Under the pieces are notes generated by a model. That model made no database searches and was not told where the DNA came from. It saw only the letters and a program-made list of their open reading frames with translations. Both the position numbers and the translations under genes were made by a program. Source: Minisyncoccia bacterium (lineage in GTDB: Bacteria; Patescibacteriota; Minisyncoccia; Phycocordibacterales; UBA918). From it: DNA of 64,000 bases. Shown here piece by piece: positions 2,830 to 40,702 of the stretch (positions are counted from its first letter, which is position 1; every line of letters begins with the position of its first letter). The stretch lies in NCBI GenBank assembly GCA_041742075.1, contig JBGSJJ010000015.1, positions 1,132 to 65,131 on the forward strand. The letters run 5' to 3'.

Positions 2830-5800
2830 CTAAAAAGTGGTCATGTTATGTTGCTTGCCATCTTCACGAGTGAGGGTAACGTCAAGCGAGAGTCCACGAA
2901 GCTGATTAACGAGTACGTTAAAGGCTGCTGGGGTGTGTGGGTGACTGATTTTTTCACCTCGTACAATTGAGTCGAAAGCGGCGCTTCGTCCAATGATATC
3001 GTCTGACTTAATCGTGAGCATTTCACGGAGTGTATACGCAGCACCATACCCAAGGAGTGCCCACACTTCCATTTCTCCGAAGCGTTGACCTCCCACCTGT
3101 GCCTTACCACCAAGTGGCTGTTGCGTAATGAGTGAGTAGGGTCCAATCGAGCGCATGTGAATCTTGTCTTCCACCATGTGGTGAAGTTTAAGAATATACA
3201 TGTAGCCGACTGCTGTTCGTTGTTCAAACTTTTCACCAGTACGACCATCACGAAGTTGCATCTTGCCGTCAGTGGCAATTCCGGCTGCTGTAAGTTCTGT
3301 CTTGATTTCTTCTTCGGTAGCAGAAGCAAACGGTGGCACGATAGCTTGGTAGCCGAGTGTGTGAGCGGCCATTCCCAAGTGAAGCTCAAGAATCTGTCCG
3401 AGGTTCATACGACTTGGTACGCCAAGTGGTGTCAGGATGACGTCAATTGGTCGACCGTCTTCAGTGTATGGCATATCTTCTTCAGGCAAGATTCGTGAGA
3501 TAACACCCTTGTTACCGTGACGTCCCGCGAGCTTGTCACCCACTGAAACATTTCGGACCTGAGCAATCGTGATATGGATTCGCTTAATCACACCACTCTC
3601 GAGCTGATCACCTTGTTCACGAGAAAAGATTTTTACCCCAATCACGCGTCCACGCTTCCCTGCCTCAAGACGAAGTGACGTGTCTTTTACGTCTTTGGCT
3701 TTCTCACCGAAGATAGAACGAAGGAGTCGTTCTTCTGGAGTAAGTTGTGCTTCACCCTTTGGTGTTACTTTACCAACCAAGATATCTCCCGGACGCACTT
3801 CAGCTCCAATACGGATAATGCCGTTTTCATCGAGGTTGCGAAGCTTCATTTCACTTACGTTTGGGATGTCTGGCGTCGTGACTTCCGGCCCAAGCTTTGT
3901 GTCTCGAACTGATACATCCAATTCTTCAAGGTGAATTGATGAGAACTTACTTTGCTTAACGAGTCGTTCAGAAATAATAATCGCGTCTTCGTAGTTTGCA
4001 CCACTCCAACTCATGAACGCCACCATCGCATTTTGACCGACGGCAATCTGACCTTGGTCAGTTGAAGACACGTCAGCAATAATGTCACCTCGTTTTACGT
4101 TCTGGCCAATTGATACCGACACGCGGTGGTAAAAGGCTGAGAAGTCGTTTGTTCGTTGGAAGGTAGTAAGCGTGTATTCGTGCTTCTTTCCATCCTTACT
4201 CTTAATGACGATATGTCGTGCATCAGCTTCGATTACTTCACCAGCTTCGTGCGCAACAAGCACACGACCAGTGTCCTTGGCTGAAAGTTCTTCAATACCA
4301 GTAGCAACAATCGGTGCCTCAGGGATGAGACACGGCGTTGCCTGCTTCTGCATGTTACTACCCATAAGCGTACGGTTCGCGTCGTCATGGTTCAAAAATG
4401 GAATCATTGAGGTCGCTACAGAGAACGCTTGGTTGGTAGCAATATCCATGAAGTTCACGTCTTTCTTCAAAACCGTGCGTGGCTCTCCATTAATACGCGC
4501 CTCCACCATGTCTGGTACGATTTTGCCGTTTTTGTCTACTTCAACCGCTGCATGAGCAATCGTAAAACCTTCTTCTTCATGAGCGTTTAGGTACACTACC
4601 TCGTCAGTCAAAACACCCTTTTCTACCTTTACGTATGGAGTTTCGATAATACCGAATCGATTGACGCGAGCGTACATCGCGAGGCGAAGAATAAGACCAA
4701 TGTTTGGGCCTTCTGGCGTGTGAATAGGACAGAGACGGCCATAGTGACTTGGGTGTACGTCACGTACTTCAAAGCCAGCTCGTTCACGAGTAAGTCCACC
4801 CGGTCCAAGCGCTGAGAGAGTTCGAAGACCTTCAAGCTCACCAAGCACGTTTTGCTGTGGCATAAACTGTGAAAGTTGGTTGGTAGTGAAGAACTCCTTG
4901 ATAGCCGCCTGGAGTGGGCGGGGGTTGACGATTTGCATTGGGAGAGACGTCTCTGCTTCAATCGTCGACATTCGGTCTTGAATGTTTCGCTTCATGCGAG
5001 TCATACCTACTCGAACACGTTGCTGAATCATTTCACCAAAGTACCGTACACGACGGAACCCGAGGTGGTCGATATCATCAGCCGCTGAGCCCGCGGTGTG
5101 GTTAAGCTTAATGATGTGGCCAACAATTAACTTGAAGTCTTCCAGGGTAATAGTTCGTTCGTCAGTCGCTTTTTTATCGATTGGTCGATGAAAACGTTCA
5201 TTGAAGTGGTGGCGACCAATTTCAGATAGGTCGTATCGTTGTGGTGAAAAGAGTGAGTTGATGAATTCCTTAGCATTTTCTACAGTTGCTAGGTCACCAT
5301 CACGAAGACGCTTGTACATTTCGATGTACGCATCGTTCGTATTCTTCACTGGGTCTTTAAGGAGAGTCGCTTTGATGTAGTCAGGTCCACGCTCAACGTC
5401 CTTGAAGAATTTTTCCATCTCCTTGTCAGTTTCAAGACCAAGAATACGGAGGAGTGACGTAAGAGGAATCTTCTTCTTGCGGTCAATCTTGATATAGAGG
5501 AGTCCATCAGCTTCAGACTCAACTTCCATCCATGCGCCACGAGCAGGAATAAGCTTCGCACCGAAATGCGTCTTACCTTTTACGTCTTGTGAGGTAAAGA
5601 AGATACCGTAACTTCGAGCCAGCTGTGGGACAACGACTCGTTCTACACCGTTAATAATGAAGGTACCGTGTTCAGTCATGACTGGCACGTCAGCCATAAA
5701 GATCTCTTGATCTTTAGCACTATCAAACGTCTTGTTCTTAAGAACAACCGTTGCCCGAAGTGGGGCGTCATAGGTAAGCTTGTTTTCCTTAGCAAAAGCT

Positions 5801-6646: not shown

Positions 6647-6706
6647 CCCCAATTTTCTTATGGTCACCCTCGACAAGCACAGCGGGAACGCTGTGCTTTT
6701 TCTTTT
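6647..6706. repeat. Direct repeat copy 1 (52/52 with 1 mismatch, about 60 nt with looser flanks). A duplicated copy of the trmD 3' end lying just downstream of the mazF stop.
   Basis: ttcttatggtcaccctcgacaagcacagcgggaacgctgtgctttttctttt matches 7358-7409. It contains the hairpin AGCACAGCG-ggaa-CGCTGTGCT. Confidence 0.85.
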
Positions 6707-7040
6707 ATAACCCCAATTGCAGGCGCAACACATTCTCAACTGCTTGTAGATCACTAGCTGAGAGGTCAGCGATACGAGTGCCGAAACGCTGATGACTTAC
6801 GGTTCTAATCTGGTCAGTCATCGCTTTACTCCGCTGACGCTTAACAGTAACTAAACACTCACTTGGGTACACATGAGTGGTATTCGAAGTCAGCGGAACC
6901 ACCTGCACACGATTAAGATGCTTGTTAGCCATGTCATTACTGACTACAATCGCCGGTCGCTTCTTTTTCACTTCACTCCCTCGAGCAGGATTAAGATTGA
7001 CCCACCACACGGAGCCTCTCTTTGGTTTTAGAACCGCCAT
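6705..7040 (-). CDS. mazF: MazF/PemK/Kid-family endoribonuclease toxin (type II TA).
   Basis: 111 aa with VWWVNLNPARGSEVKKKRPAIVVSND...VVPLTS, typical of PemK/MazF. Overlaps the upstream antitoxin by 13 nt. Confidence 0.8.
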   Translation of the reverse strand: MAVLKPKRGSVWWVNLNPARGSEVKKKRPAIVVSNDMANKHLNRVQVVPLTSNTTHVYPSECLVTVKRQRSKAMTDQIRTVSHQRFGTRIADLSASDLQAVENVLRLQLGL

Positions 7041-7279
7041 ACATTTTCTGCTTCAAGCGTCTCATCAGTTCCATGTAGCCACTCACCCGCTTCGGCCTCA
7101 CGTGCGCTATCTTTAGCCATAGCTTTATACCCAGCTTCTATATCATCAACAATAACGTGCGGTCGAGCTAGTTGACTCAAGTACTCACCAACACCACGCG
7201 CACCGACTCGTGCTCGCAAACCTGCGTACACCTGCTCATCGAGCATTATTGTAATTTTCTTTTTTATGGCTGTTTTCAT
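7028..7279 (-). CDS. Antitoxin, probably leaderless, starting MKTAIKKKITIMLDEQVYAGLRAR (RHH/CopG-like). The ORF track extends it to 7306.
   Basis: Small ORF overlapping the toxin start. Operator palindromes sit immediately 5' of the ATG at 7279. Confidence 0.6.
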   Translation of the reverse strand: MKTAIKKKITIMLDEQVYAGLRARVGARGVGEYLSQLARPHVIVDDIEAGYKAMAKDSAREAEAGEWLHGTDETLEAENVWRF

Positions 7280-7316
7280 AATACGTATTATAATACGTAT
7301 TAGCATTTTGTGTCAA
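7280..7316 (-). promoter_or_regulatory. Promoter and operator of the TA cassette: TTGACA-N18-TATAAT, with two tandem 10-bp palindromes AATACGTATT overlapping the -10. The ATG lies about 7 nt after the -10.
   Basis: Plus strand 7280-7301 reads aatacgtattataatacgtatt (two perfect palindromes). The -35 tgtcaa is at 7311-7316 on plus. Confidence 0.55.
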
Positions 7317-8068: not shown

Positions 8069-8106
8069 TAAACCTTTACCTATCATTAATGATAGGTAAA
8101 GGTTTA
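8069..8106. promoter_or_regulatory. 38-bp perfect palindrome taaacctttACCTATCATtaATGATAGGTaaaggttta overlapping the stop codon of the TrpR-like gene. Motif copy A. Either an operator or a bidirectional terminator hairpin.
   Basis: Perfect inverted repeat with 18-bp arms, followed by aaatttttt on plus. Confidence 0.6.
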
Positions 8107-8558
8107 AATTTTTTGAGTACAGCATCTGCCAGATTAAAAAGTAAAAAATGCATTGGGTATTGTTTGCGTAAATGACTGAACGTCAATGATTCTATATGCT
8201 CTTTTTGCTGTCGATTTTGGAGTGACTTTTTTGCTTGTCTATCCTCGACTTCTAATTGGTACGCTTTGAGTGAATCTTCGTAATGTGGCACCTGTCCCTG
8301 TAACCACTTCCGAGTTCGTGAGAAAGTGTTCGGACTTACATTAAAATTGTAGCTTATTTCTGCTTGTGATTTTCCGGCTAAAATGAGCTGTGCAATGAGT
8401 ATGCGTCTTCCGATTGTTATTCGCTCACTTTCAGTCAACAGTTCATTTATAAAGGTAACAACTCCATCCCTACTACTCATACACTCTGCAACAGACATAA
8501 GCGCATCGAGTGTGACCTGTTTCTCACTGTACTTTAATTTATTTATACTTTTACTCAT
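8076..8558 (-). CDS. TrpR-like / YerC-YecD family HTH DNA-binding protein. It occupies the position where rimM normally sits between the KH gene and trmD.
   Basis: 160 aa. LLTESERITIGRRILIAQLILAGKSQAEISYNFNVSPNTFSRTRKWL resembles the TrpR/YerC helix-turn-helix. Confidence 0.5.
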   Translation of the reverse strand: MSKSINKLKYSEKQVTLDALMSVAECMSSRDGVVTFINELLTESERITIGRRILIAQLILAGKSQAEISYNFNVSPNTFSRTRKWLQGQVPHYEDSLKAYQLEVEDRQAKKSLQNRQQKEHIESLTFSHLRKQYPMHFLLFNLADAVLKKFKPLPIINDR

Positions 8559-9013: not shown

Positions 9014-9110
9014 ATGCTTATGTTCGCTCTACTAAATTATGTCTAAGTGCTTAGAACTCATTAATGTTCTTAGCTCGTTATATAGTACGAGGCTCTTTAG
9101 CATACGTCAA

Positions 9111-9158: not shown

Positions 9159-9638
9159 TTAGACTACTTTGGTTTCTTCCTCTGTCGGTACTACTTCAGC
9201 TGGAGTTTCCTCAACTACTGCAGTCGCAACTTCTTCAACCGGAGTGGCGGCGGCTTCTTCGGCTGCCTGCGCAACTGCGAGTGCCTCAGCTTCTGCCTTT
9301 GCCTTCGCGTCAGCTTCTGCTTTCTTAGCATCTTCCGCAGCCTTAATAGCGGCTTCGTCGATAATTGGAGACTTCTTAGAAAGCGCGTTTACTTTCTTGC
9401 CTTCAATCACTTTCTTCGTAATAAGAAGATTGTGTACGGTATCAGAAGGCTGTACTCCCTTACTCATCCAGTCAGTCACTTTCGCGCTGTCAATAATAAA
9501 ATGCTTTGTTTTTGGGTTGTATGAACCAACCTGATCCACGTGCTTATTGCTCTTTGGACCAGTTCGTTTATCAGTGACCACAATCCGGTACGACGGATCG
9601 TTTTTTCGGCCAACTCGTTGTAATCGCATCATTAACAT
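9159..9638 (-). CDS. rpsP: 30S ribosomal protein S16 with a long Ala/Glu/Lys-rich C-terminal extension. Start taken at MLMMRLQRVGR; the ORF track extends it to 9689.
   Basis: MRLQRVGRKNDPSYRIVVTDKRTGPKSNKHVDQVGSYNPKT matches bS16. Confidence 0.85.
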   Translation of the reverse strand: MLMMRLQRVGRKNDPSYRIVVTDKRTGPKSNKHVDQVGSYNPKTKHFIIDSAKVTDWMSKGVQPSDTVHNLLITKKVIEGKKVNALSKKSPIIDEAAIKAAEDAKKAEADAKAKAEAEALAVAQAAEEAAATPVEEVATAVVEETPAEVVPTEEETKVV

Positions 9639-10184: not shown

Positions 10185-12143
10185 ATGACTACAGAAACAT
10201 ATACTGGACCACTCATGGTTCGTGGCAAAGGGGTCGGTTTTTTTAGAAGGCCAGAAGCACTCGAAGACGAAGAAGACATCGTTATTACTACCGAACAACT
10301 CGGGTTTGCACTTGATGGCGATATTGTTGAAATTACCCTTCTTCCGAAGGTAGCCGGCCGGCGGCGCGAAGGCAAAGTTACAAAAGTAGTAGAGTCCGCT
10401 CGGACTGAGTTTATTGGCGTGGTTCGGGCCCCTGAAGGGACCAGGACGACTCATTTCATGGTGTGTGATAATACCCGCATCCACATAAAGTTTTTGCTTC
10501 CTGAAGCCTCAAGTGACCTTGTAGGCATGAAAGTAGTGGTCACTATACGTGAGTGGAAAAATCCCCTGACTGAGCCAATTGCCACTATTATTGAAACTCT
10601 CGGCAAAGCAGGTGATCATGAAACTGAAATGCAGGCTATCATACGAGGTGGCGGTTTTTCGGAAAATTTCCTACCGCCGATTCAAGAAGCTGGGCAGGCA
10701 CTCTACGATAACCGCGAGCAGATATTTGCTGACGCGGTAACTGCCACACTCGGAGAAAACCCTACCAGGCGGGATATGCGTGATCGACTGACGATGACGA
10801 TTGACCCGAAAGACGCGAAAGACTTTGACGATGCGCTGTCGCTCCATGTACTTCCTGACGGTAACTACGAAATTGGTATCCACATTGCCGACGTCTCACA
10901 CTACGTTCGGGAAGGTGACGTAATTGACCAAGAAGCCCAGCATCGCGGAACTTCTATTTATTTAGTCGACCGGGTGATTCCGATGCTTCCTGAAGTCTTA
11001 AGTAACGACCTTTGTTCACTTCGGCCACACGAAGACCGACTGTCTTTTTCAGCCGTGTTCACCATGAACGATGACGCTCAGATAGTGAGTGAGTGGTACG
11101 GTCAAACCATCATCCACTCCAACCGACGCTTTAGCTATGAAGAGGCCCAAGAAGTTTTAGATACCCAAAGTGGCGACAATCTCGAAGAACTGAATACCAT
11201 GATGCGGCTCGGGCGACTGCTCCGCGCACGACGGTTTAAAGACGGCGCGATTGCCTTTGAGCAACCAGAGGTGCGTTTCGAACTCGATGAAAACGGCAAG
11301 CCAATCCGAGCATACACTAAGGTGCGTACCGAAACTATGCTCATGATTGAGGACTTTATGCTTCTTGCGAACCAAAAGGTTACTGAGTACATTTACACCC
11401 TCACTAAAAGTAAAAGCAAAGACGCCGCCTTTATCTATCGTATTCACGATTCACCGGACCCAGACAAAATTGAAGAGCTAGCGATTTTTATTCACGCGCT
11501 TGGGTATGAGTTTGAGACGAACAAAGGTCTCGTTACAGCCAAAAACATCAACAAGCTGTTGAAAGAAGTTGAGGGTAAGCCAGAAGAAAACCTCATCAAA
11601 ACCGCGACGATTCGATCAATGGCAAAAGCGGTGTACTCTACCCGCAACATCGGCCACTTTGGTCTCGCTTTTAAGTACTACACCCACTTCACCTCTCCGA
11701 TTCGTCGTTACCCCGACCTGATGGCTCATCGACTCCTCAGGAAACACCTAGACGGTGTCACGATTAGCAGTCGCGAGATGTCACACAATGAACGACTGGC
11801 TGTGCAGTGTTCAGAACGGGAGATGTACGCGGTGCGTGCCGAACGTGACTCCATCAAGTTTAAACAAGTGGAGTTCATGCTTGATAAAGTCGGACAGACT
11901 TTTAAAGGGATTGTTACCGGTGTGGCTGAATGGGGTATCTATGTGCAAGAGGTTGAATCGCAAGCTGAAGGGTTAGTTCGCCTTGCCTCAATTAAAGGTG
12001 ATTATTTCAATCACGAACCAAAGTCTTATCGCGTCAAAGGTGAGAAAACCGGTGCTGCTTTCGCACTTGGTGATGAGGTAACTATGAAGCTCACCCGCGC
12101 CTCACTTGAAGACAGGCAACTCGATTTTGAGCTCGTAAAATAG
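10185..12143 (+). CDS. rnr: Ribonuclease R / RNase II family 3'-5' exoribonuclease.
   Basis: 652 aa. RNB domain HIADVSHYV, N-terminal cold-shock/OB region, S1-like C-terminus. Confidence 0.9.
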   Translation: MTTETYTGPLMVRGKGVGFFRRPEALEDEEDIVITTEQLGFALDGDIVEITLLPKVAGRRREGKVTKVVESARTEFIGVVRAPEGTRTTHFMVCDNTRIHIKFLLPEASSDLVGMKVVVTIREWKNPLTEPIATIIETLGKAGDHETEMQAIIRGGGFSENFLPPIQEAGQALYDNREQIFADAVTATLGENPTRRDMRDRLTMTIDPKDAKDFDDALSLHVLPDGNYEIGIHIADVSHYVREGDVIDQEAQHRGTSIYLVDRVIPMLPEVLSNDLCSLRPHEDRLSFSAVFTMNDDAQIVSEWYGQTIIHSNRRFSYEEAQEVLDTQSGDNLEELNTMMRLGRLLRARRFKDGAIAFEQPEVRFELDENGKPIRAYTKVRTETMLMIEDFMLLANQKVTEYIYTLTKSKSKDAAFIYRIHDSPDPDKIEELAIFIHALGYEFETNKGLVTAKNINKLLKEVEGKPEENLIKTATIRSMAKAVYSTRNIGHFGLAFKYYTHFTSPIRRYPDLMAHRLLRKHLDGVTISSREMSHNERLAVQCSEREMYAVRAERDSIKFKQVEFMLDKVGQTFKGIVTGVAEWGIYVQEVESQAEGLVRLASIKGDYFNHEPKSYRVKGEKTGAAFALGDEVTMKLTRASLEDRQLDFELVK

Positions 12144-12150
12144 TCTATAT

Positions 12151-12196
12151 AAAAACAAAGAGCCGGCGCACTTCGTGCGCCGGCTCTTTGGTTTTG
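12151..12196. terminator. Bidirectional terminator AAAGAGCCGGCGCAC-ttc-GTGCGCCGGCTCTTT + GGTTTTG, between rnr(+) and smc(-).
   Basis: Perfect 15-bp GC-rich stem with flanking A/T tracts. Confidence 0.8.
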
Positions 12197-14470
12197 CTAT
12201 TTAGCCACTGTTGCAGCTTCGTCAAACTTTACCGACAAAAGCTTTGATACCCCATCACCTCCCATCGTCACGCCATAGAGTATGCCGGCCCGACTCATTG
12301 TCTCGCGATTGTGCGTAATTAAAATAAGTTGAGACTTTTGGGCTAACGCCTCAATCATGTCACCGTAGCGTCGACTATTAGCCTCATCAAGCGCTGCATC
12401 GGTTTCATCAAGAATAATAAACAGCGGCGGATTGACCTGACTCATAGCAAAAATAAGCGCGATTGAAGTCAGTGCTCGCTCCCCGCCTGAAAGCATCTCG
12501 AGACCGCGCACCCGCTTGTTTGGCAGTTTAACATCAAGCTCAATACCCTCTTCACCTTCCTCCTCCTCAGTCAGGTCAGTTTCTGTATCTTCTTCAAGTA
12601 CTGTCTCGTCTGCTTTTTTTCGTACTTTTGGCTTTACTCGCACCAGGTTAGCTTCCCCGCCACCAAACATAAGTATGAAAAAACGATTGAATTCTGTGCC
12701 GATTTTCTCAATACCAGTTATAAAATACCCACTCAGTTCGGCAGTGAGTTCAGCCATAAGTGTCTCTAGTTTCGTCACCGACTCTTCAAGGTCGGTAATT
12801 TCACGCACTAAAAACTCATCTCGTTCTTTGACTTCTTTGTATTCTTTTTCAATGTCAGCATTTACACCACCGAGTTCCTCTAGGCGAATTTTAATTTTTT
12901 CGAGCTCGCGTCTTCGTTCGTACTGTTTCGTTCTTTCCTCGCTTGCAATGTGCGCCAGGCTTAAAGAAGCACCATCTTGCATGACTTCAAGTTCATAATA
13001 CAGTGAGGCATCGCGACCAAGCAGGGTAACTGCTTCTTGCAGTTCACGCTTAAACTCTTCTCGCTCCCGTTCGAGAACGTTCCGCTCGTGATTTATTCTC
13101 GAGATAACTGCTTCGCATTCTCGCTGTGCTCCCATAACACGGAAAATTTCACGCTCTGCCTCCCGACTCTCAGACTGTTCCGACTCAATTGAAGCTCTCA
13201 GTTTTTTGTAGGCCTCTCTACGCTCTTCTTCTGATTTTTCACACTCGATTATTTGCTTAGCTAGTTCGGCGTGTTCTTTTTGTAACTCATCTAATTCCTT
13301 TTCTTCCGCATTGGTATTAGCGCTGACTGAACCGAGGGCAGTCTGAAGAAACTTCTTACCCAAATGCACCACATCAGACAAAGCTCGCTGAAGTAACGGA
13401 ACTTCAGTACTGATAAGTGAGCGGGTGGCCATATCTTCAAGCGCACTTATAAATCGCTTTACTTCACCCACTGGTATTGGAGCGTCGCTTTCGCTTTGAC
13501 TGACCCGCTCCATCTCGACAATTCTACGCTTGATATAGTCTACCTGCCCTTCAATGTTGCCACTTTTTCGAACCAGTCCTTGTCTTTTTTCTCGCACTTC
13601 TTTTGTCTCGCGCTCAAGCTGAAGCAACTCATCACTTTTAGCATCACGCTCGTGCATCTTGAGTAATTCTTTCGCTTGCGCCAGCTCACTCTCGAGCACT
13701 TCAAGTTGCTTAGTCGGTACCCGTATCTCTTTATCAAGTCTGTCATGATGCCAGGCAATATACGTATCCTCACGCTTGAGGTACTCAGCATAGACAGTAC
13801 CAAGTTCAGCCCGGAGCGAAATAGCTCGCTCAATTTTTTTAATTTGCCGTTCCAAAAATTGAATGTGGGGTGCGACCTCTCGCCTAAGAGACTGTACCTT
13901 TTCTATATTCTCCCTTGTCTTCACAAGCTTCTTATCAGCATCAGCAATCTTGTACTGATATACCTTGAGACCAAGGGCATCTTCGATCATTTCTCGGCGT
14001 TCCTTTGGACCAGCTGAGAGAATACGGTCGGCTTCACCTTGCGAAATAATATGGTGGCCAGTGGTACCAATGTTGGCGGCAGCTAGAAGCTCTTGGACGT
14101 CTTTCAGACGGACTTTTGAACCATTTATCAAGTACTCATTTTGACCATCGCGGTGAACTATACGCTCCACTACAATCTCATCAAAATCAACCCGAAACAC
14201 TCGACTGCGGTTATCGAGTACTACTACCACTGAAGCGCGGTTTGACCTTGAAACTGATTCTGAACCACCAAAAATAAGGTCTTCCCCTTTCTTCCCCCGC
14301 ATTGACTTAAGTGACTGTTCTCCAAGTACAAAGCGAAACGATTCGGCGACGTTACTCTTCCCGGAACCGTTTGGTCCCACTATGGCCGTAATCGGGGCAC
14401 TGAACTCAAGCTCGCCTTTCTTAGCGAATGATTTAAATCCTGAAATAGTAAGGTGCTTGAGGTACATCAA
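12197..14470 (-). CDS. smc: SMC-family chromosome segregation ATPase, short form (757 aa, no recognisable hinge).
   Basis: N-terminal Walker A GPNGSGKSN, extensive coiled coil, C-terminal LSGGERALTSIALIFA...ILDETDAALD signature and Walker B. The rnc-(pilin)-smc order recalls the rnc-smc synteny of Firmicutes. Confidence 0.7.
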   Translation of the reverse strand: MMYLKHLTISGFKSFAKKGELEFSAPITAIVGPNGSGKSNVAESFRFVLGEQSLKSMRGKKGEDLIFGGSESVSRSNRASVVVVLDNRSRVFRVDFDEIVVERIVHRDGQNEYLINGSKVRLKDVQELLAAANIGTTGHHIISQGEADRILSAGPKERREMIEDALGLKVYQYKIADADKKLVKTRENIEKVQSLRREVAPHIQFLERQIKKIERAISLRAELGTVYAEYLKREDTYIAWHHDRLDKEIRVPTKQLEVLESELAQAKELLKMHERDAKSDELLQLERETKEVREKRQGLVRKSGNIEGQVDYIKRRIVEMERVSQSESDAPIPVGEVKRFISALEDMATRSLISTEVPLLQRALSDVVHLGKKFLQTALGSVSANTNAEEKELDELQKEHAELAKQIIECEKSEEERREAYKKLRASIESEQSESREAEREIFRVMGAQRECEAVISRINHERNVLEREREEFKRELQEAVTLLGRDASLYYELEVMQDGASLSLAHIASEERTKQYERRRELEKIKIRLEELGGVNADIEKEYKEVKERDEFLVREITDLEESVTKLETLMAELTAELSGYFITGIEKIGTEFNRFFILMFGGGEANLVRVKPKVRKKADETVLEEDTETDLTEEEEGEEGIELDVKLPNKRVRGLEMLSGGERALTSIALIFAMSQVNPPLFIILDETDAALDEANSRRYGDMIEALAQKSQLILITHNRETMSRAGILYGVTMGGDGVSKLLSVKFDEAATVAK

Positions 14471-18846: not shown

Positions 18847-18872
18847 CACCAGCCTATCCAGCTGGTTTTATG

Positions 18873-18910
18873 TTGTCTAAACCTACCTGTTAACAGGTAG
18901 GTTTAGACAA
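18873..18910. promoter_or_regulatory. 38-bp perfect palindrome TTGTCTAAACCTACCTGT-ta-ACAGGTAGGTTTAGACAA about 60 nt upstream of dnaE. Candidate operator or hairpin.
   Basis: 18-bp perfect arms containing a CTGT/ACAG core reminiscent of LexA-type boxes. Confidence 0.45.
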
Positions 18911-18970
18911 CAGTGTAATTTGTCATGGAGGTGGGAGTAAAAAATTTGCTATACTGGTGTCTACTATCCT

Positions 18971-23418: not shown

Positions 23419-23446
23419 TTGACAATCTACCTTGGCACGCTAGTAT
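23419..23446 (+). promoter_or_regulatory. Promoter TTGACA-N16-TAGTAT for the thrS leader.
   Basis: Consensus-like hexamers read from the sequence. Confidence 0.5.
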
Positions 23447-23452
23447 GTATAC

Positions 23453-23695
23453 ACATTCAGAGATTGCTTCGGCTACCAACCGAGGAGGTATACAGTCTCT
23501 ACCTATCATCAATGATAGGTAGAGACAACCTACGATATTAGTCTAATCTGACCCTTAAGTGCTGACGAGAAAACACTTGTCAGAAACTCGGTGGAACCGC
23601 GGTTACAAGTACCCTTTCGGTACTTAAAAATCGTCCGAGTGAGCACACGAACTTTCGTGTATTCACTCGGACGATTTTTCAGTTATTAGTTTTAA
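23453..23695 (+). promoter_or_regulatory. Candidate T-box riboswitch leader for thrS. T-box core AAACTCGGTGGAACCGCGG at 23584-23602, competing terminator at 23626-23680, and a candidate Thr specifier ACC(A) in a hairpin loop at about 23473-23476.
   Basis: GGTGGAACCGCGG matches 13/13 of the GGTGGNACCGCGG T-box core. ACTCGG just 5' of UGGA can pair with CCGAGT in the 5' strand of the terminator AAAAATCGTCCGAGTGA...TCACTCGGACGATTTTT, which is the antiterminator/terminator alternative. The N of UGGN is A, complementary to U73 of the tRNA-Thr in this window. Confidence 0.5.
23495..23526. promoter_or_regulatory. 32-nt perfect palindrome GTCTCTACCTATCATcaATGATAGGTAGAGAC (motif copy C) inside the thrS leader.
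   Basis: Shares a 20-nt core with copy A (8075-8098) and a 15-nt core with copy B. Confidence 0.6.
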
Positions 23696-23705
23696 TTACT
23701 CACCT

Positions 23706-25460
23706 ATGCCAGAACAATTAGAAAAGACTCGACACACCCTCGCCCACCTGCTTGCGAAAGCTGTGTTGGTAAACTTTCCGCACGCCAAGCCCACTATCGG
23801 TCCGGCTATCGAGACGGGTTTTTACTATGACTTTGACTTCAGTGGTGGCGCGAGCCCAAGTGATGCCGACCTCAAAGTCCTTCAGACCACTATGCGCAAA
23901 ATGCTGAGTTCATGGACAGAGTTCTCCCACCGGGAAGTCAGCCCAGACGAAGCCCGAGCGGTTTTTGTGGGGAATCAGTTCAAACTAGAACTGATTGAAG
24001 AATTGGCAGAGAAAGGTGAGACTATAACACTATATACCGTTGGGTCTGGCAAAACTGAGTTTACCGACCTCTGTCGTGGTGGACACAGCGCGAGCCCAGC
24101 GAATGAAATCAGCGCTGATAGTTTCAAGCTGGATAAAGTTGCTGGTGCCTACTGGCGAGGCGATGAGAAAAATCCAATGCTCGTGCGTATCTACGGACTC
24201 GCATTTGCTGACAAAGATGGACTTGAAGCCTACGAAACACAATTGGCCGAAGCTAAAAAACGCGACCATCGAAAACTTGGGAAAGAACACGACCTCTTCA
24301 CCTTTTCAGAACTTGTCGGTTCTGGTCTACCGCTCTGGACTCCAAAAGGCACCGTCATCCGTCACGAACTCGATACGTTCATCTGGAAACTCCGCGAAAA
24401 GCATGGCTACCAACGAGTAACCATTCCCCACATCACCAAGAAAGACCTGTATGTCACGTCCGGTCACTGGGAAAAATTTGCCGATGAGTTGTTCCGTATC
24501 ACCACTCGCGAAGGTAAAGAATACGCTCTTAAGCCAATGAACTGTCCGCACCACACGCAGATTTTTGACCGTCAACCACACAGCTACCGTGACATGCCGG
24601 CTCGCTACGCTGAGACCACTATGGTCTACCGCGATGAGCAATCAGGCGAGCTGGGTGGACTTACCCGGGTACTTTCCATCACCCAAGACGACTCACACGT
24701 ATTTTGCCGCCACTCTCAGATTAAGGAAGAGTTCTTCCGCGTTTGGGACATCATCGACACCTTCTATGGAACCTTCGGTTTCAATCTTCGCGTGCGTCTA
24801 TCTTTCCACGAACCGACAGAGATGGAAAAGTACCTTGGCACGAAAGAGATTTGGGAGAATGCTGAGAATGCCCTTAGAGACATAGCGATAGAGCGTAAAG
24901 CAGATTACTTTGAAGCACCAGGCGAAGCCGCTATGTACGGACCGAAGCTCGACTTCATGGCCAAAGACTCCATTGGTCGTGAGCACCAAGTGGCGACCAT
25001 TCAGCTTGATATGAACCTCCCAGAACGCTTTGACCTTACCTGCATCAATGAAAAAGGTGAGAAAGAGCGTATCGTGATGATGCACTGCGCTATTATGGGG
25101 TCTATCGAACGCTTTACCGCAGTCTTGATTGAGCACCTTGGTGGCAACTTCCCGCTTTGGCTCGCTCCAGTTCAGGTAGCCATCATCCCGGTATCTGAAG
25201 TTCACGATGCCTACGCCACGCAAGTACACCAGGCACTCCGGGCTATCGGCATTCGAGCTGACTACTACGGCGACAATGACTCGATGGGCAAAAAGATTCG
25301 GACTGCCAAGCAAGCCAAACTTCCCTACTTCGTCGTCATCGGTGACAAGGAAGTGGAAGCAAAGAATGTGACCCTTGAAAGTCGTGATGGTGAATCTAGG
25401 CAAATTGACCTACACGCGCTCGGCAATCATCTCCTCACTGAAATTGAGGTGAAGAAGTAG
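23706..25460 (+). CDS. thrS: Threonyl-tRNA synthetase, short form lacking the N-terminal TGS domain.
   Basis: HTLAHLLAKAV editing-domain HxxxH, class II motifs, C-terminal anticodon-binding domain. Confidence 0.92.
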   Translation: MPEQLEKTRHTLAHLLAKAVLVNFPHAKPTIGPAIETGFYYDFDFSGGASPSDADLKVLQTTMRKMLSSWTEFSHREVSPDEARAVFVGNQFKLELIEELAEKGETITLYTVGSGKTEFTDLCRGGHSASPANEISADSFKLDKVAGAYWRGDEKNPMLVRIYGLAFADKDGLEAYETQLAEAKKRDHRKLGKEHDLFTFSELVGSGLPLWTPKGTVIRHELDTFIWKLREKHGYQRVTIPHITKKDLYVTSGHWEKFADELFRITTREGKEYALKPMNCPHHTQIFDRQPHSYRDMPARYAETTMVYRDEQSGELGGLTRVLSITQDDSHVFCRHSQIKEEFFRVWDIIDTFYGTFGFNLRVRLSFHEPTEMEKYLGTKEIWENAENALRDIAIERKADYFEAPGEAAMYGPKLDFMAKDSIGREHQVATIQLDMNLPERFDLTCINEKGEKERIVMMHCAIMGSIERFTAVLIEHLGGNFPLWLAPVQVAIIPVSEVHDAYATQVHQALRAIGIRADYYGDNDSMGKKIRTAKQAKLPYFVVIGDKEVEAKNVTLESRDGESRQIDLHALGNHLLTEIEVKK

Positions 25461-35017: not shown

Positions 35018-36943
35018 TTAGCGTACTTCCCAACCTTTTTTGGAAACCGCTTCGTAGACCGTCTCCATCACAGTGTTTACTTCTCCGTCAGTGAGCGTGC
35101 GCTCGCCAGCTTGGAAAACGAGTCTAAAGGCAAAAGAAGTCCGACCGTCTTTGGTAAACTCGTCAAACAACGTCGTACGTACTCGGAGAGGTCCGGCTGA
35201 AGGATTGAGGATAGACTCGATTGCTTCTGCGCTCGTGCCTTCCGGCACCCACAAAGCAATGTCACGACTCATCGCTGGGTAGACTGAAAACGGCACGTAC
35301 GAAATAGGCAGTGCTTTTGAAACAGCCTCGTAGGCCAGAGGAAGCGGTAATGACAAATAGAGATTTGTAAACTGCACCTCAGCGACACCTTGCGTGATAG
35401 TTTCATGAAGTGGTACACCCAAACACGTAGCGACTTCAGTGACCACTGAGGCCAAAAGAGCATCATCCTTAGGCGTGTACCCCGCTACCTTAGTCCGCAC
35501 TCCAAAAGCGAGGGCGACATGCTCCACGACACCAGCATCAGTTTTAGAAAAAACCGTCCCAATTTCAAAGATGCGGGTATCAGGCATTCCCAGCAGGTCA
35601 GTAAACGGTGTGTTCTTTGCCAGGACTTCAAGGAGGTTCGTGGCTAATGTGGAGCGTAGGTACGACTTATCACTGGCTAGAGCGTTTTGCAGTTGTACCT
35701 CATCCTTCGCCCGAAACGAAGAAGTTATTACTTCCGAAAAACCAAGCTGAAGAAGACAGGCTCGCACTTTTTCACTATAGTAATGTCGTACGTTAATATG
35801 CGTAAGCGGTACCGTTTCTGGCATCACCGAGGTAACTTTGTCGTAGCCAATAATACGACCAATCTCTTCAATCACATCCTCTTCAATTAAAATGTCAGTC
35901 CGTTCAAACGGAGCGGTTACTTCAAAGACGCCATCGTCTTTTTTAGCATAGCCAAAACCGAGTCCAGTAAATATCCCCTCGATGGTTTCAGTCTGCAGAC
36001 TAATTCCGAGCAAAGCCTCAGCATTTCGTTTCTTAATTGTAACCGCCGTGTTTTCCATAGTCTTTGGCCGAGCGTGTGCAAAGCCTTCTACATTTCCACC
36101 GGCAATTTTTATAATCAACGCTACTACTTCGGTTAAGGCATACGGAACAACTTTTGAAGCGACGTTGTTTTCAAATCGTTTTGAAGCGTCAGTTGAAAGC
36201 TTCAGCTTTTGCGACGCTTTTCTGGTTACTACTGGGTCAAAGTTCCCGGCTTCGAGAATGATGTTTTTGGTCTCAGCATCAACAATCGCGTACTGACCAC
36301 CCTTAATGCCTGCAATACCGGCCGGAGAATCGTCAGCCCCATTCACGATTAGTTGAATACTGGGATCAAGTTCATAGCGCACTCCGCCGAGGGTATCAAT
36401 CGCCTCCCCCACTTTTGCCATCCTGACACCAAAATGCCACGCATTATTTTCATCTTTCTTAAACTTATCGGCGTCATAGGCATGGAGAGGTTGCCCGAGA
36501 GCAAACATGACGTAGTTCGTCGCGTCAACAATATTGTTTATTGAACGTTGCCCGAGCGCTTCGAGCCTTGAAGCCAGCCACTCTGGGGACGGTCCAACAG
36601 TGATGCCGGTAACTAGTGCTAAGTCAAAGTGTCGACAATACTCACCATTTTCGATTGATATGACTAGGCGGTCTGTTTCCGGCATGATTGGAGTGAGTGA
36701 AAAAGGATCATGACTAAGCGGTGTCCCGGTGAGTGTGGAGAGTTCCCTGGCAATCCCCCGGTGACACAAACAATCAGACGACCGGTTCGGCAAAATCTTT
36801 ATATCGATAACAGCATCAGCGACGCCAACGGGCTCTATGCCGTCTATCTCAAAAGCTGAGAACGTCATTATACGCTCCACTTCCTGAACTGAAGGAGTAG
36901 CGTCACCCATGTAGTCTTTAAGCCAGCTGTGGAGTATTTTCAT
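35018..36943 (-). CDS. pheT: Phenylalanyl-tRNA synthetase beta subunit, short form (641 aa).
   Basis: N-terminus MKILHSWLKDYM...; B3/B4, B5 and FDX-ACB-like regions. Confidence 0.9.
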   Translation of the reverse strand: MKILHSWLKDYMGDATPSVQEVERIMTFSAFEIDGIEPVGVADAVIDIKILPNRSSDCLCHRGIARELSTLTGTPLSHDPFSLTPIMPETDRLVISIENGEYCRHFDLALVTGITVGPSPEWLASRLEALGQRSINNIVDATNYVMFALGQPLHAYDADKFKKDENNAWHFGVRMAKVGEAIDTLGGVRYELDPSIQLIVNGADDSPAGIAGIKGGQYAIVDAETKNIILEAGNFDPVVTRKASQKLKLSTDASKRFENNVASKVVPYALTEVVALIIKIAGGNVEGFAHARPKTMENTAVTIKKRNAEALLGISLQTETIEGIFTGLGFGYAKKDDGVFEVTAPFERTDILIEEDVIEEIGRIIGYDKVTSVMPETVPLTHINVRHYYSEKVRACLLQLGFSEVITSSFRAKDEVQLQNALASDKSYLRSTLATNLLEVLAKNTPFTDLLGMPDTRIFEIGTVFSKTDAGVVEHVALAFGVRTKVAGYTPKDDALLASVVTEVATCLGVPLHETITQGVAEVQFTNLYLSLPLPLAYEAVSKALPISYVPFSVYPAMSRDIALWVPEGTSAEAIESILNPSAGPLRVRTTLFDEFTKDGRTSFAFRLVFQAGERTLTDGEVNTVMETVYEAVSKKGWEVR

Positions 36944-36951
36944 AGGTACAA

Positions 36952-37674
36952 TTAAAACTGGCTAACAAAGCGCAAATCACCACTATATAAATTTCGAATA
37001 TCATCAATCCCATACTTCATAACAGCCAACCGGTCGATACCCATCCCAAACGCAAAACCAGAAAATTCTTCAGGGTCAATCCCCGCGTCACGAAGTACAT
37101 GCGGATGGACCATACCAGCTCCCATAATTTCTATCCAACGATTGGCCAGTTTGCTTTCACTTCCTCGTAGCATCATGTCTATCTCTACCCCCGGTTCAAC
37201 AAACGGAAAAAAACTTGGTCTAAACCGTACTTCGACATCTCCAGCAAAAAACTTTGAGAAGAAGTATTCAATCGTTCCCTTGAGGTGTCCCATGTGAACT
37301 CCCCGGTCGACATACAAACCTTCAAGCTGATGGAATTGGGCTTCGTGCGTGGCATCGGTAGCTTCGTTTCGAAATACTTTCCCCGGGACAATAACTCTGA
37401 TTGGCGGTTTGTTTGTTTCCATAAAGCGAGCTTGCACTGGACTGGTGTGCGTACGAAGTACCATTGGCTCTTGCGCATCAGTTGGTTTAAAGTAAAACGT
37501 GTCCTGCATGTCGCGCGACGGATGATCTTTTGGCACATTGAGACGGTCAAAGTTGTATTTTTCAAGCTCTGCTTCCGGTCCCTCCGCAAACACAAAACCT
37601 ATTTCAGCAAAAATACTATTGATTTCTGCAATCATCGTGGAAAGTGGATGTTGATGCCCGGCTGGAATTTTCAT
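36952..37674 (-). CDS. pheS: Phenylalanyl-tRNA synthetase alpha subunit, short form. Start taken at MKIPAGHQHPL.
   Basis: Class II core motifs. Gene order pheS-pheT. Confidence 0.9.
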   Translation of the reverse strand: MKIPAGHQHPLSTMIAEINSIFAEIGFVFAEGPEAELEKYNFDRLNVPKDHPSRDMQDTFYFKPTDAQEPMVLRTHTSPVQARFMETNKPPIRVIVPGKVFRNEATDATHEAQFHQLEGLYVDRGVHMGHLKGTIEYFFSKFFAGDVEVRFRPSFFPFVEPGVEIDMMLRGSESKLANRWIEIMGAGMVHPHVLRDAGIDPEEFSGFAFGMGIDRLAVMKYGIDDIRNLYSGDLRFVSQF

Positions 37675-37686
37675 ACTAAAACACAC

Positions 37687-38835
37687 CTACCTACTAATAT
37701 CGGCATATACCTGAAGGAAATACTCATCTTGCTTGACGTAGATGGTTTGTCCATCAATCACCACCTCGATGTCCGTACCAGGATACAGCAGTTGCACATT
37801 TTGCCATGACCGATCGTCTACCTCAACAACATACAACCCGTCACTCAGGTGCATAAGGACGAGGTCAGTTGTACCTGGCACAAAGTCAAACATTTTTACG
37901 TCTTGCCATTTTCGGTCAATCCGAATAGTGCTTCTACAGAGTGTTTGATTCTCAAGTTCACTATTGCCAAAATCGGTCGTACTCGCGAGTTGTGTATAGA
38001 GCTGAGCGAACACATGTTCACCATAGAGCTGAGCGGTCGTTGTGGCATCTTGATAATTTACACAGTAGTAGTATGGACGTCGTCTATCTTCACCCACCCA
38101 CTGCGCAAATACTTCTCCTTCACTTTCATACAACACAACGTCTTGTGTTCGTTTGGTGGTAGTGGCGAGTATGGGTGTAGTGCTCGGTGTGGTAAGAACA
38201 GGCGAGTTATTTCCGCTTGGCTTCTGAGTGGCAGTACTCGTCGCTGTAGTAGTCGGAGTTGCAAAAAGACTTCGTACGAACACATACTCACTGTTTACTG
38301 CGTACGTACTAGTAGCGGTACTGGTAGTAGATACAAGAAGACTCGTCGTGGTAGCACCTCTAAATGGTGTCGTGGTGGCTGGTTCAAAAAGTACCCCCGC
38401 CGAAACTCGCGGGTCAACCCAGTTGGTTATAACCCGAACCTGCGGAATAACCGGAAGATTAAAACTTCGCGCTTCGGTCACCAGCTGGGCAAAGACTGGT
38501 AGGTTTTTAACCCATGTCCGTACTCCCTCCCCTTCCACATACACTTCATGCAGTCCGGCTGGAACGTTTTGAATGTACGCTGCTTGCTGAAAGATACGCA
38601 TATTTTGTACCGGCTCACCATTAACGATAATTTCCGTCTCTTCGGCAGAGTTGGTGATATACATCCCGCCAACAATACGAAAACTCGTTTCTGAACTCAT
38701 CCAATTAAAACGGTAGCCAGTTGCATACAGCACGAGAAGTGGTACAAGGACCGTAAACATACCTAGCATCGACAAAAAAACTAACCGACGACTCGATTGT
38801 GACAAAGGCTTTAGCTGAGGTTGAGTGGGAGACAT
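37687..38835 (-). CDS. Hypothetical N-terminally anchored membrane protein with a Thr/Ser-rich linker (382 aa), adjacent to the GT2 gene and in an operon with pheS.
   Basis: TM helix near the N-terminus. TTTATSTATQKPSGNNSPVLTTPSTTPILATTTK low-complexity region. Confidence 0.5.
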   Translation of the reverse strand: MSPTQPQLKPLSQSSRRLVFLSMLGMFTVLVPLLVLYATGYRFNWMSSETSFRIVGGMYITNSAEETEIIVNGEPVQNMRIFQQAAYIQNVPAGLHEVYVEGEGVRTWVKNLPVFAQLVTEARSFNLPVIPQVRVITNWVDPRVSAGVLFEPATTTPFRGATTTSLLVSTTSTATSTYAVNSEYVFVRSLFATPTTTATSTATQKPSGNNSPVLTTPSTTPILATTTKRTQDVVLYESEGEVFAQWVGEDRRRPYYYCVNYQDATTTAQLYGEHVFAQLYTQLASTTDFGNSELENQTLCRSTIRIDRKWQDVKMFDFVPGTTDLVLMHLSDGLYVVEVDDRSWQNVQLLYPGTDIEVVIDGQTIYVKQDEYFLQVYADISR

Positions 38836-40587: not shown

Positions 40588-40629
40588 CATTCCCTACTCG
40601 CTTCACTCGTACTACACCTCTCGTATCGG

Positions 40630-40702
40630 AGCCATCTGTCAGATTCGAACTGACGACCTACTCATTACAAGTGAGTTGCTCTACCGACTGAGCTAAGATG
40701 GC
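40630..40702 (-). tRNA. tRNA-Thr (anticodon UGU). No encoded CCA. Discriminator U.
   Basis: Clean cloverleaf: acceptor GCCATCT/AGATGGC, D arm GCTC-AGTCGGTA-GAGC, anticodon arm ACTCA-CTTGTAA-TGAGT, T arm GTCAG-TTCGAAT-CTGAC. Confidence 0.9.

Follow-up and report, generated by a model that had tools for sequence, protein, structure and literature searches.

The thrS gene in a 64,000-nucleotide stretch of contig JBGSJJ010000015.1 from a Minisyncoccia bacterium (the whole stretch being referred to here as the window) is preceded by a leader that is, with an estimated probability of ∼0.87, a T-box riboswitch of a distinct structural class, predicted to make read-through into thrS dependent on whether tRNA-Thr is charged. 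In Firmicutes and Actinobacteria, T-boxes count as textbook regulators. The source of the window belongs to the Patescibacteria, or candidate phyla radiation (CPR), as had been guessed in an earlier sequence-only reading of this DNA; the best relatives of the ThrS protein are encoded by Parcubacteria and Patescibacteria metagenome-assembled genomes (MAGs) at 78–82% identity. That reading had also proposed a T-box upstream of thrS, and the proposal is borne out by more than 120 relatives with covarying helices, although they are of a divergent type with an ultrashort Stem I. At the level of predicted RNA structure, the comparison establishes two alternative folds, a codon loop, a UGGA bulge, and an exclusive association with thrS.

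By its sequence and predicted pairings, the discriminator module in the 3′ half of the leader is canonical for T-boxes. Known T-box discriminators have a 7-nt bulge with a 3′ ACC, an RRRxG-Stem III-AA string, and a G-U pair ending helix A2 (PMC7583486, Table 1), and every one of these features is found in the window (Table 1, below). The sequence GGTGGAACCGCGG at positions 23590–23602 is an exact 13/13 match to the T-box core, as had been claimed, and is the sole match in the window to GGTGGNACCGCG at ≤1 mismatch. The longer T-box sequence AGGGUGGNACCGCG is present as CUCGGUGGAACCGCG at positions 23587–23601, with the bulge at 23592–23598, and is invariant in the family, an invariance partly imposed by the search. 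Of 62 family members, 37 have G-U and 25 have G-C as the pair that ends A2. The minimum free energy (MFE) fold of positions 23553–23641 consists of Stem III and the exact antiterminator with its 7-nt bulge (z = −4.6).

The full-length leader, by contrast with this segment, folds into the terminator form (−98 kcal/mol, z = −10). The strong rho-independent terminator announced by the sequence-only reading is a 26-bp hairpin ending in TTTTT, and its 5′ arm includes the 3′ strands of both A2 and A1. The strand at 23632–23640 can pair either with 23586–23601 or with 23665–23673. The mutually exclusive layout described previously, in which ACTCGG stands directly 5′ of TGGAACC and is complementary to CCGAGT, was found as stated.

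In the 5′ half of the leader, covariation and folding point to a compact decoding module in which a 5-bp long-range helix, P1, closes a multi-helix junction with GAUUG and CUAA strands and projects a codon hairpin, the ultrashort Stem I. The MFE fold of the 5′ domain of the window consists of P1, Stem I, and an 18-pair Stem II. An ACC codon followed by A had been reported in the loop of a small hairpin, and the codon and the A do lie within the 7-nt loop CTACCAA, flanked by CTTCGG paired with CCGAGG. With a pyrimidine, a U, three bases, and two purines, the loop CUACCAA appears to us to be laid out like an anticodon loop (YU-NNN-AA). A Stem I with a kink-turn (K-turn), which had been named as a structure to be sought by folding, does not exist in the leader; a short 6-bp specifier hairpin is present instead. 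Neither a K-turn nor an internal specifier loop, S-turn, or interdigitated T-loop platform was found in the leader, the conserved structure being the 6-bp hairpin and its 7-nt loop, and inspection of 105 variable regions revealed no conserved S-turn or CGUUA-like F-box.

Relatives of the leader were gathered from genome loci reached through ThrS and from a metagenome scan with the pattern GATTG-N6-CT-NNN-AA-N{60,90}-GGTGGNACCGCG, in which the codon was left free. The arrangement recurs 5′ of thrS in >120 other contigs. Among the ThrS-guided loci, those from at least 10 Patescibacteria MAGs have the same leader, with the T-box core, GAUUG, and a 6-bp hairpin carrying CUACCAA, and the stem of this specifier hairpin varies in sequence from genome to genome around the constant loop. 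The metagenome scan yielded at least 120 loci; among the matches listed, 111 have at least five pairs in the 6-base flanks of the loop. All 111 of these stem-forming matches carry a threonine codon (ACC in 110 and ACG in one), and their bulge is UGGA in 109 cases and UGGG in two. No other amino acid specificity was seen among them under the fixed GATTG, CT..AA, and 6-bp-stem pattern. Nine further listed matches form no stem and carry unrelated triplets, and those tested were not recognized by the family model described below. Where at least 400 nt of sequence remained after the element, a ThrS homologue was encoded downstream in 113 of 113 loci.

The order of elements in these leaders is the P1 5′ strand, GAUUG, Stem I, Stem II, an optional second hairpin, CUAA, and the P1 3′ strand, followed by a linker ending in RRRxG, Stem III, AA, the A1 5′ strand, UGGAACC, A2, the A1 3′ strand, the terminator 3′ strand, and a U-tract. 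The second small hairpin is present after Stem II in approximately half of the family, its loop often being GAAA or otherwise A-rich. A strictly defined terminator (at least 7 of 9 pairs followed by at least 5 U in 8 nt) was detected in 92 of 110 distinct leaders, and most of the others have longer stems. A promoter scoring at least 9/12 lies 5′ of P1 in 89 of 112 leaders as against 10 of 109 shuffled sequences, with a −10 element that mostly ends 5–12 nt before P1. The σ70-like promoter of the window (Table 1) would place the transcription start near position 23453, ∼4 nt 5′ of P1.

The G, A, U, and last G of GAUUG are invariant in the family alignment; the motif is partly imposed by the metagenome pattern and was also found in the genome loci reached through ThrS. 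The second junction strand is CUAA in 98 and CCAA in eight of 112 distinct leaders. A UUG/UAA extension of P1 is possible but involves bases that do not vary, so no covariation signal is obtainable from them. A continuous helix between GAUUG and CUAA was rejected on finding that the GAUUG/UAGUC pairing of the window MFE fold is not kept in relatives, and a K-turn made of the two strands was rejected on inspection as not fitting the K-turn consensus. The family varies at Stem II: the gap from Stem I to CUAA has a median of 25 nt and measures 57 nt in the window, the longest of 105. Long perfect hairpins of unrelated sequence stand at the Stem II position in loci L093, L112, L161, L194, L139, L095, and L156 (e.g., GTAGTCCAATCGATTGGACTAC and GCAAACTTTCGGTTAACCGAAAGGTTTGC).

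All five conserved helices and the terminator were found to covary. For P1 and Stem I, a unique C[UC]AA served as the anchor of the constructs, which kept pairing from influencing the choice of P1; 95.1% of cells were paired and 11 of 11 pairs showed compensatory changes, as compared with ≤39% pairing in controls with slid partners. Taken alone, P1 showed compensatory changes at five of five pairs (88.6–91.7% paired) and Stem I at six of six (∼98% paired). In 62 constructs, A1 and A2 were 95.5% paired with compensatory changes at four of six A1 pairs (slid controls, ≤49%), and the terminator helix was 92.5% paired with compensatory changes at five of nine pairs (slid controls, ≤41%). When 42 natural contiguous leaders, the window not among them, were aligned with MAFFT alone, similar values were obtained for P1, Stem I, Stem III, A1, and A2: 93.2% of cells were paired and 20 of 25 pairs showed compensatory changes, as compared with ≤43% pairing in controls with slid partners. 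Within the constructs, one strand covaries with both an upstream and a downstream partner, which is the signature of a switch.

A covariance model of the family (R1; P1, Stem I, Stem III, A1, and A2) was built from the same 42 leaders, the window again being left out. The model matched the window once, at positions 23456–23641 and over its full length (model positions 1–127), with 63 bits and an E value of 2.5e-11, and gave no other match in the 64-kb window up to E = 10. It also matched 15 of 80 genome loci, in every case on the thrS strand, and all of these matches except those in L053 and L062 end within ∼170 nt of thrS. In these two loci, the match lies ∼550–640 nt upstream of thrS with an open reading frame (ORF) in between. 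The matching loci are labeled as Patescibacteria lineages or uninformatively (two as “bacterium” and one as “Gammaproteobacteria”), and none of the loci labeled Bacteroidota among the 80 was matched.

Comparative data of this kind bear directly on the possibility that the leader is no more than a promoter-proximal attenuator or intrinsic terminator whose T-box-like 13-mer arose by chance, to which a negligible probability is assigned. The loose pattern GGTGGNACCGCG is expected 0.64 times per window with ≤1 mismatch and is not significant alone, and the whole-window E value of the Rfam T-box model RF00230 is 5.4. The match is nevertheless exact, an exact 11-base match being expected ∼0.03 times in 128 kb by our own arithmetic, and the motif is conserved together with the codon loop, P1, Stem III, A1, A2, and the terminator, with covariation, in >110 independent thrS leaders. 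A chance motif beside a plain terminator is refuted by this comparison.

The leader was also scanned with RF00230 at its gathering threshold (93 bits) and at permissive E-value thresholds, and related loci were scanned at the gathering threshold. The model aligned to positions 23447–23623, with E values of 0.016 on 191 nt and 0.042 on 501 nt in addition to the whole-window value given above. The alignment retained Stem III and the T-box core; most of Stem I was deleted, with 33 nt standing for 86 model positions, and the F-box of the model was placed where the conserved CUAA strand of the family stands. None of 13 related loci reached the gathering threshold. No Rfam family scored above threshold for the leader, and the other weak matches (miRNA and psbJ) were to the terminator hairpin only. 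An RF00230 match had been set beforehand as the check on the T-box proposal, and taken by itself the sub-threshold result would have led to a wrong rejection; the finding is kept because the comparative evidence establishes a T-box family. Since the standard Rfam model is blind to this family, annotation pipelines miss it as a whole.

By analogy with the established T-box mechanism, the leader would work as follows. The anticodon of tRNA-Thr, presumably that of the GGU isoacceptor, would kiss the ACC loop, and in our view this codon-anticodon contact would be a loop-loop kiss between two pre-organized 7-nt loops. The short codon helix may be buttressed by the invariant junction strands and also, in many family members, by the GAAA-type loop of the second hairpin. 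The free 3′-UCCA end of uncharged tRNA would then pair with UGGA and stabilize the antiterminator, such that polymerase reads into thrS. Threonyl-tRNA would be unable to pair with UGGA, and the terminator would form.

A T-box acting instead on translation, through sequestration of the ribosome-binding site as in the ultrashort-Stem-I ileS T-boxes of Actinobacteria, is very unlikely here. All ultrashort Stem I T-boxes so far described are translational (10.1101/2023.02.28.530422; PMC7583486), and insertions in A2, as in the window, are reported to be frequent in translational T-boxes (PMC7583486). The GC-rich 26-bp stem of the window, however, runs directly into UUUUU, ends 27 nt before the AUG, and covers no Shine-Dalgarno-like sequence, and of 110 family members, at least 92 have a hairpin with a U-tail. 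Sequestration of the ribosome-binding site is ruled out in several loci by the position of the element upstream of thrS, at a distance of 250–700 nt or of an entire ORF. Leaders 250–700 nt from thrS were observed in L002, L053, L062, L091, and L110. In L002 (2750–2990), an additional ∼240 nt of non-coding sequence follows the terminator. The leaders of L053 and L062 are each separated from thrS by a small ORF, which the T-box may control together with thrS as a two-gene unit.

Escherichia coli threonyl-tRNA synthetase (ThrRS) represses its own mRNA through mimics of the anticodon arm. The specifier hairpin of the present leader might likewise be a tRNA-Thr mimic bound by ThrRS, the T-box motif being incidental, and the 6-bp stem with its 7-nt YU-NNN-AA loop in front of thrS does resemble an anticodon arm. 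However, what the loop carries is the codon ACC, where a mimic of tRNA-Thr would have one of the anticodons GGU, UGU, or CGU; the loop thus complements tRNA-Thr instead of imitating it. ACC is kept in 110 of the 111 stem-forming matches listed, and autoregulation of this type, which is extremely unlikely, would leave the whole covarying discriminator and terminator without a function. The E. coli thrS translational operator similarly contains a short hairpin whose loop of 7 nt resembles an anticodon loop, whereas the loop described here holds a codon and is followed by a complete T-box discriminator and a terminator; the presence of these three elements indicates an RNA-tRNA mechanism rather than the RNA-protein mechanism of the E. 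coli operator.

Several observations weigh against the T-box interpretation or limit its reach. Binding of tRNA and antitermination are inferred from the known T-box mechanism, and transcriptional T-boxes are thought to need an elbow-binding platform for fast co-transcriptional capture of tRNA (PMC7583486, section 6.2), so the kinetics of a family devoid of any elbow-binding element are left unexplained. The tRNA-Thr(UGU) gene, the sole tRNA gene in the window, has the U73 that the sequence-only reading had paired with the A of UGGA, and this complementarity was confirmed; the UGU isoacceptor is not the one that reads ACC, and among the 15 tRNA genes detected by ARAGORN in the window and related loci, the two tRNA-Thr genes are both UGU with U73 and none is GGU. 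RF00230 gave only 19.1 bits against its gathering threshold of 93. Part of the relatives were gathered with a pattern that fixes GATTG, CT..AA, and GGTGGNACCGCG, the invariance of which is accordingly in part imposed. Finally, the window copy has no convincing second small hairpin and lies low in the score range of the family (63 bits versus 51–105), the latter because Stem II is enlarged by the 32-nt palindrome and A2 by an inserted hairpin, both of them large insertions.

Class I T-boxes (RF00230; e.g., Bacillus subtilis tyrS, thrS, and glyQS) have in common with the thrS leader the T-box sequence with a UGGNACC bulge that pairs with NCCA, A1 and A2 with a terminal G-U pair, the RRRxG-Stem III-AA string, a mutually exclusive intrinsic terminator, and a specifier codon that precedes a purine and corresponds to the amino acid of the aminoacyl-tRNA synthetase regulated. 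The B. subtilis thrS leader presumably has the same ACC specifier as well as the same thrS target. Unlike class I T-boxes, the leader described here has no long Stem I, K-turn, internal S-turn specifier loop, or AG bulge/distal-loop elbow platform. It also has no recognizable Stem II S-turn or Stem IIA/B F-box pseudoknot, elements that are missing from glyQS-type leaders as well, and has a P1-closed GAUUG/CUAA junction. Class I T-boxes differ further in distribution, as the members of the present family with an assigned taxon are Patescibacteria.

Structures exist for the ileS leaders of Mycobacterium tuberculosis, Mycobacterium smegmatis, and Nocardia farcinica. In Actinobacteria, ileS T-boxes that act on translation and have an ultrashort Stem I are said to have been described by Sherwood, Grundy, and Henkin in 2015. 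Like the thrS family, these have a short Stem I with the specifier in its terminal loop, no elbow contact, a conserved discriminator core, extra helices beside Stem I, and insertions in A2. They act on translation by Shine-Dalgarno sequestration and respond to tRNA-Ile upstream of ileS, whereas members of the thrS family contain an intrinsic terminator, are found in front of thrS alone, and read the codon ACC. Their decoding module is organized by a Stem II S-turn and a pseudoknot between Stem IIA/B and a linker; that of the thrS family is closed by P1, with no S-turn or F-box consensus seen. Every ultrashort T-box regulates ileS according to a preprint (10.1101/2023.02.28.530422). The thrS family would by this description be set apart from that class and form a second ultrashort class, its genome-derived members being Patescibacteria and not Actinobacteria. 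A literature search of incomplete coverage found no paper joining T-boxes with any CPR taxon name, and the T-box class of Patescibacteria thrS leaders is probably, though not certainly, undescribed.

The family extends T-boxes to CPR bacteria, which have tiny genomes and few known regulators. The combination of an ultrashort Stem I with a transcription terminator provides a natural test case for the elbow-platform rule and, if the leader works as proposed, contradicts the view that co-transcriptional T-boxes need a long Stem I platform. Measuring ∼120–150 nt from P1 to the A1 3′ strand, the leader offers a compact scaffold for tRNA-sensing devices, and its clean decoding module, with a codon in a 7-nt loop and invariant junction strands, suits structural work. 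The discriminator follows the textbook T-box, as does the switching logic; specialists would be surprised by the decoding module, by an ultrashort Stem I joined to a terminator, and by the phylogenetic setting. The T-box core GGUGGAACC was also observed in other Patescibacteria thrS leaders with different or more divergent 5′ domains (L025 2837–2929, L030 2875–2974, L040 2869–2945, L049 2832–2938, and L058 ∼2780–2960). These score weakly on the family model (31–41 bits), and L030 has no obvious terminator. T-box diversity in Patescibacteria is probably larger than the family described here.

Within the window, no second T-box was detected by a motif scan, a relaxed scan for UGGNA[AC]C with an A1 complement, an Rfam E-value scan, or the family model. 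The motif, Rfam, and family-model scans likewise gave no T-box-like leader for pheT (35018–36943, − strand) or for the probable pheS upstream of it (36952–38835, − strand). T-box control is not general for the aminoacyl-tRNA synthetase genes of the window.

In the window, Stem II encloses a perfect 32-nt palindrome, which the sequence-only reading had described as shared with a TrpR-like gene. A core of ∼16–24 nt does recur beside that gene, but the full 32-mer occurs only at positions 23495–23526. TrpR-like genes in six genomes were found to be flanked by long perfect palindromes (Table 1), five of them with the core TATCAT-NN-ATGATA. The upstream palindrome overlaps the likely −10 region or the start of the TrpR-like gene, and the downstream one often shares bases with the stop codon. 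These palindromes are probably operators for autoregulation of the TrpR-like protein and are thereby candidate operators for the widespread, uncharacterized TrpR/YerC-like proteins of Patescibacteria. Gene and palindromes may otherwise represent a small mobile cassette, an alternative raised by the different neighborhood of the TrpR-like gene in each genome.

The palindrome in the thrS leader could, in addition to its place in the T-box, be a DNA operator for the TrpR-like protein ∼40–75 nt past the transcription start and so bring thrS under the dual control of the T-box and of a protein acting as a roadblock or repressor. The core common to five of the six palindrome-flanked TrpR-like genes, with an upstream copy on the −10 region or start, is consistent with this idea, as is the downstream palindrome of L201, TCTCTACCTATCATTAATGATAGGTAGAGA, which agrees with the thrS-leader palindrome at 29 of 30 bases; because the two TrpR-like proteins are only 64% identical, this agreement points to selection on the DNA sequence. 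Among 121 leaders, however, the window is the only carrier of the palindrome. Unrelated long hairpins occupy the variable Stem II in L093, L112, L161, and L095, so the palindrome could be a hairpin that was duplicated or is mobile and does no more than form Stem II, and TrpR-like genes stand beside thrS no more often than chance predicts. Dual control of thrS is accordingly held to be possible but somewhat doubtful, and any protein-level control exerted through the Stem II palindrome is speculative. If it were real, an RNA switch and a protein switch would operate on the same 32 bp in this genome. The composite proposal, in which the leaders form a new thrS-only transcriptional T-box class without elbow contact, widespread in Patescibacteria, and the Stem II DNA of the window is also a TrpR-like operator, is considered to have an even chance of being correct.

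The variability of the Stem II site, together with the absence of this palindrome from every other leader, marks the insertion as lineage-specific and tolerated. Stem II palindromes of other leaders did not recur elsewhere in their own contigs, although the loci are short and the power of this comparison is low. A functional link through TrpR-like genes adjoining thrS was considered and rejected: two cases were found (L007 and L172), and ∼1 was estimated to be expected in ∼170 loci. A 42-nt perfect palindrome (TGTTGTCTAAACCTACCTGTT/AACAGGTAGGTTTAGACAACA) was also observed at positions 18871–18912, 59 nt upstream of dnaE. It resembles the palindromes of L172, which have the core TACCTGTTAACAGGTA, and CTACCT...AGGTAG is present both in it and in the thrS-leader palindrome. 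The dnaE palindrome may represent a second type of operator for this regulator family.

Table 1. Positions of the leader elements, genes, and palindromes (window coordinates; rows that name another locus give positions in that locus)
Feature	Positions	Strand	Remarks
σ70-like promoter	23419–23446	+	TTGACA 23419–23424, 16-nt spacer, TAGTAT 23441–23446; 10/12 matches
Whole thrS leader RNA (predicted)	∼23453–23685	+	
P1, 5′ strand UCAGA	23457–23461	+	Pairs with 23547–23551; covariation, MFE fold agrees
Junction strand GAUUG	23462–23466	+	Conserved; family alignment
Ultrashort Stem I	23467–23485	+	6-bp hairpin CUUCGG/CCGAGG; covariation, fold
Specifier loop CUACCAA, 7 nt	23473–23479	+	Thr codon ACC 23475–23477, conserved purine A 23478
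Stem II	23486–23531	+	18-pair helix; AGGU 23486–23489 with ACCU 23528–23531; encloses palindrome
Perfect palindrome, 32 nt	23495–23526		Stem II position; full 32-mer occurs once in the window
Junction strand CUAA	23543–23546	+	Conserved; family alignment
P1, 3′ strand UCUGA	23547–23551	+	Covariation, fold
Stem III module	23557–23585	+	AAGUG (RRRxG) 23557–23561; CUGAC 23562–23566/GUCAG 23579–23583; AA 23584–23585
Antiterminator helix A1	23586–23640	+	ACUCGG 23586–23591/CCGAGU 23635–23640; MFE, covariation
T-box bulge UGGAACC, 7 nt	23592–23598	+	
Antiterminator helix A2	23599–23603/23630–23634	+	GCGGU/AUCGU; terminal pair G23599-U23634
Extra hairpin inserted inside A2	∼23607–23625	+	
Intrinsic terminator	23626–23679	+	26-bp hairpin 23626–23651/23654–23679; UUUUU 23675–23679
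thrS, gene under control of the leader (predicted)	23706–25460	+	584 aa; Pfam tRNA-synt_2b, HGTP_anticodon, tRNA_SAD
tRNA-Thr(UGU), U73	40628–40702	−	Sole tRNA gene in the window
TrpR-like gene	8076–8558	−	Pfam Trp_repressor, E 9.7e-12
Palindrome overlapping TrpR-like stop codon	8070–8105		8076–8099 matches the 32-mer core at 21/24 bases
Palindrome 15 nt upstream of TrpR-like start codon	8573–8592		Same CTATCATCAATGATAG centre as Stem II palindrome
L201, palindromes of TrpR-like homologue	3966–3995, 4459–4488		Homologue 64% identical; same rpsP-KH-[TrpR]-trmD context
L202, palindromes of homologue of window TrpR-like gene	3916–3953, 4446–4489, 4494–4533		Three; core ATATCATTAATGATAT
L203, palindrome of homologue of window TrpR-like gene	3915–3952		One, upstream; core CTATCTATCA..TGATAGATAG
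L007, palindromes of distant TrpR-like homologue	∼4909–4944, 5360–5395		Two CTATCATATATGATA copies
L172, palindromes of distant TrpR-like homologue	9071–9110, 9515–9556		Two of 40 nt; different core TACCTGTTAACAGGTA

Adjoining the rpsP-KH-TrpR-trmD cluster of the window, two overlapping ORFs of 111 and 92 aa (6705–7306, − strand) resemble a MazF/PemK-type toxin and its antitoxin on a reading of the sequence only. A sub-threshold Rfam match to the ribosomal protein L20 leader (30.8 versus 58.7 bits, E 0.044) was observed at positions 12081–12198 (+ strand) between RNase R-like and SMC-like genes; it overlaps an inverted repeat at 12151–12195 and is most likely a mere terminator hairpin. Close to the right end of the window (position 64000), an ORF of 2303 aa extends over positions 57019–63930 (− strand).

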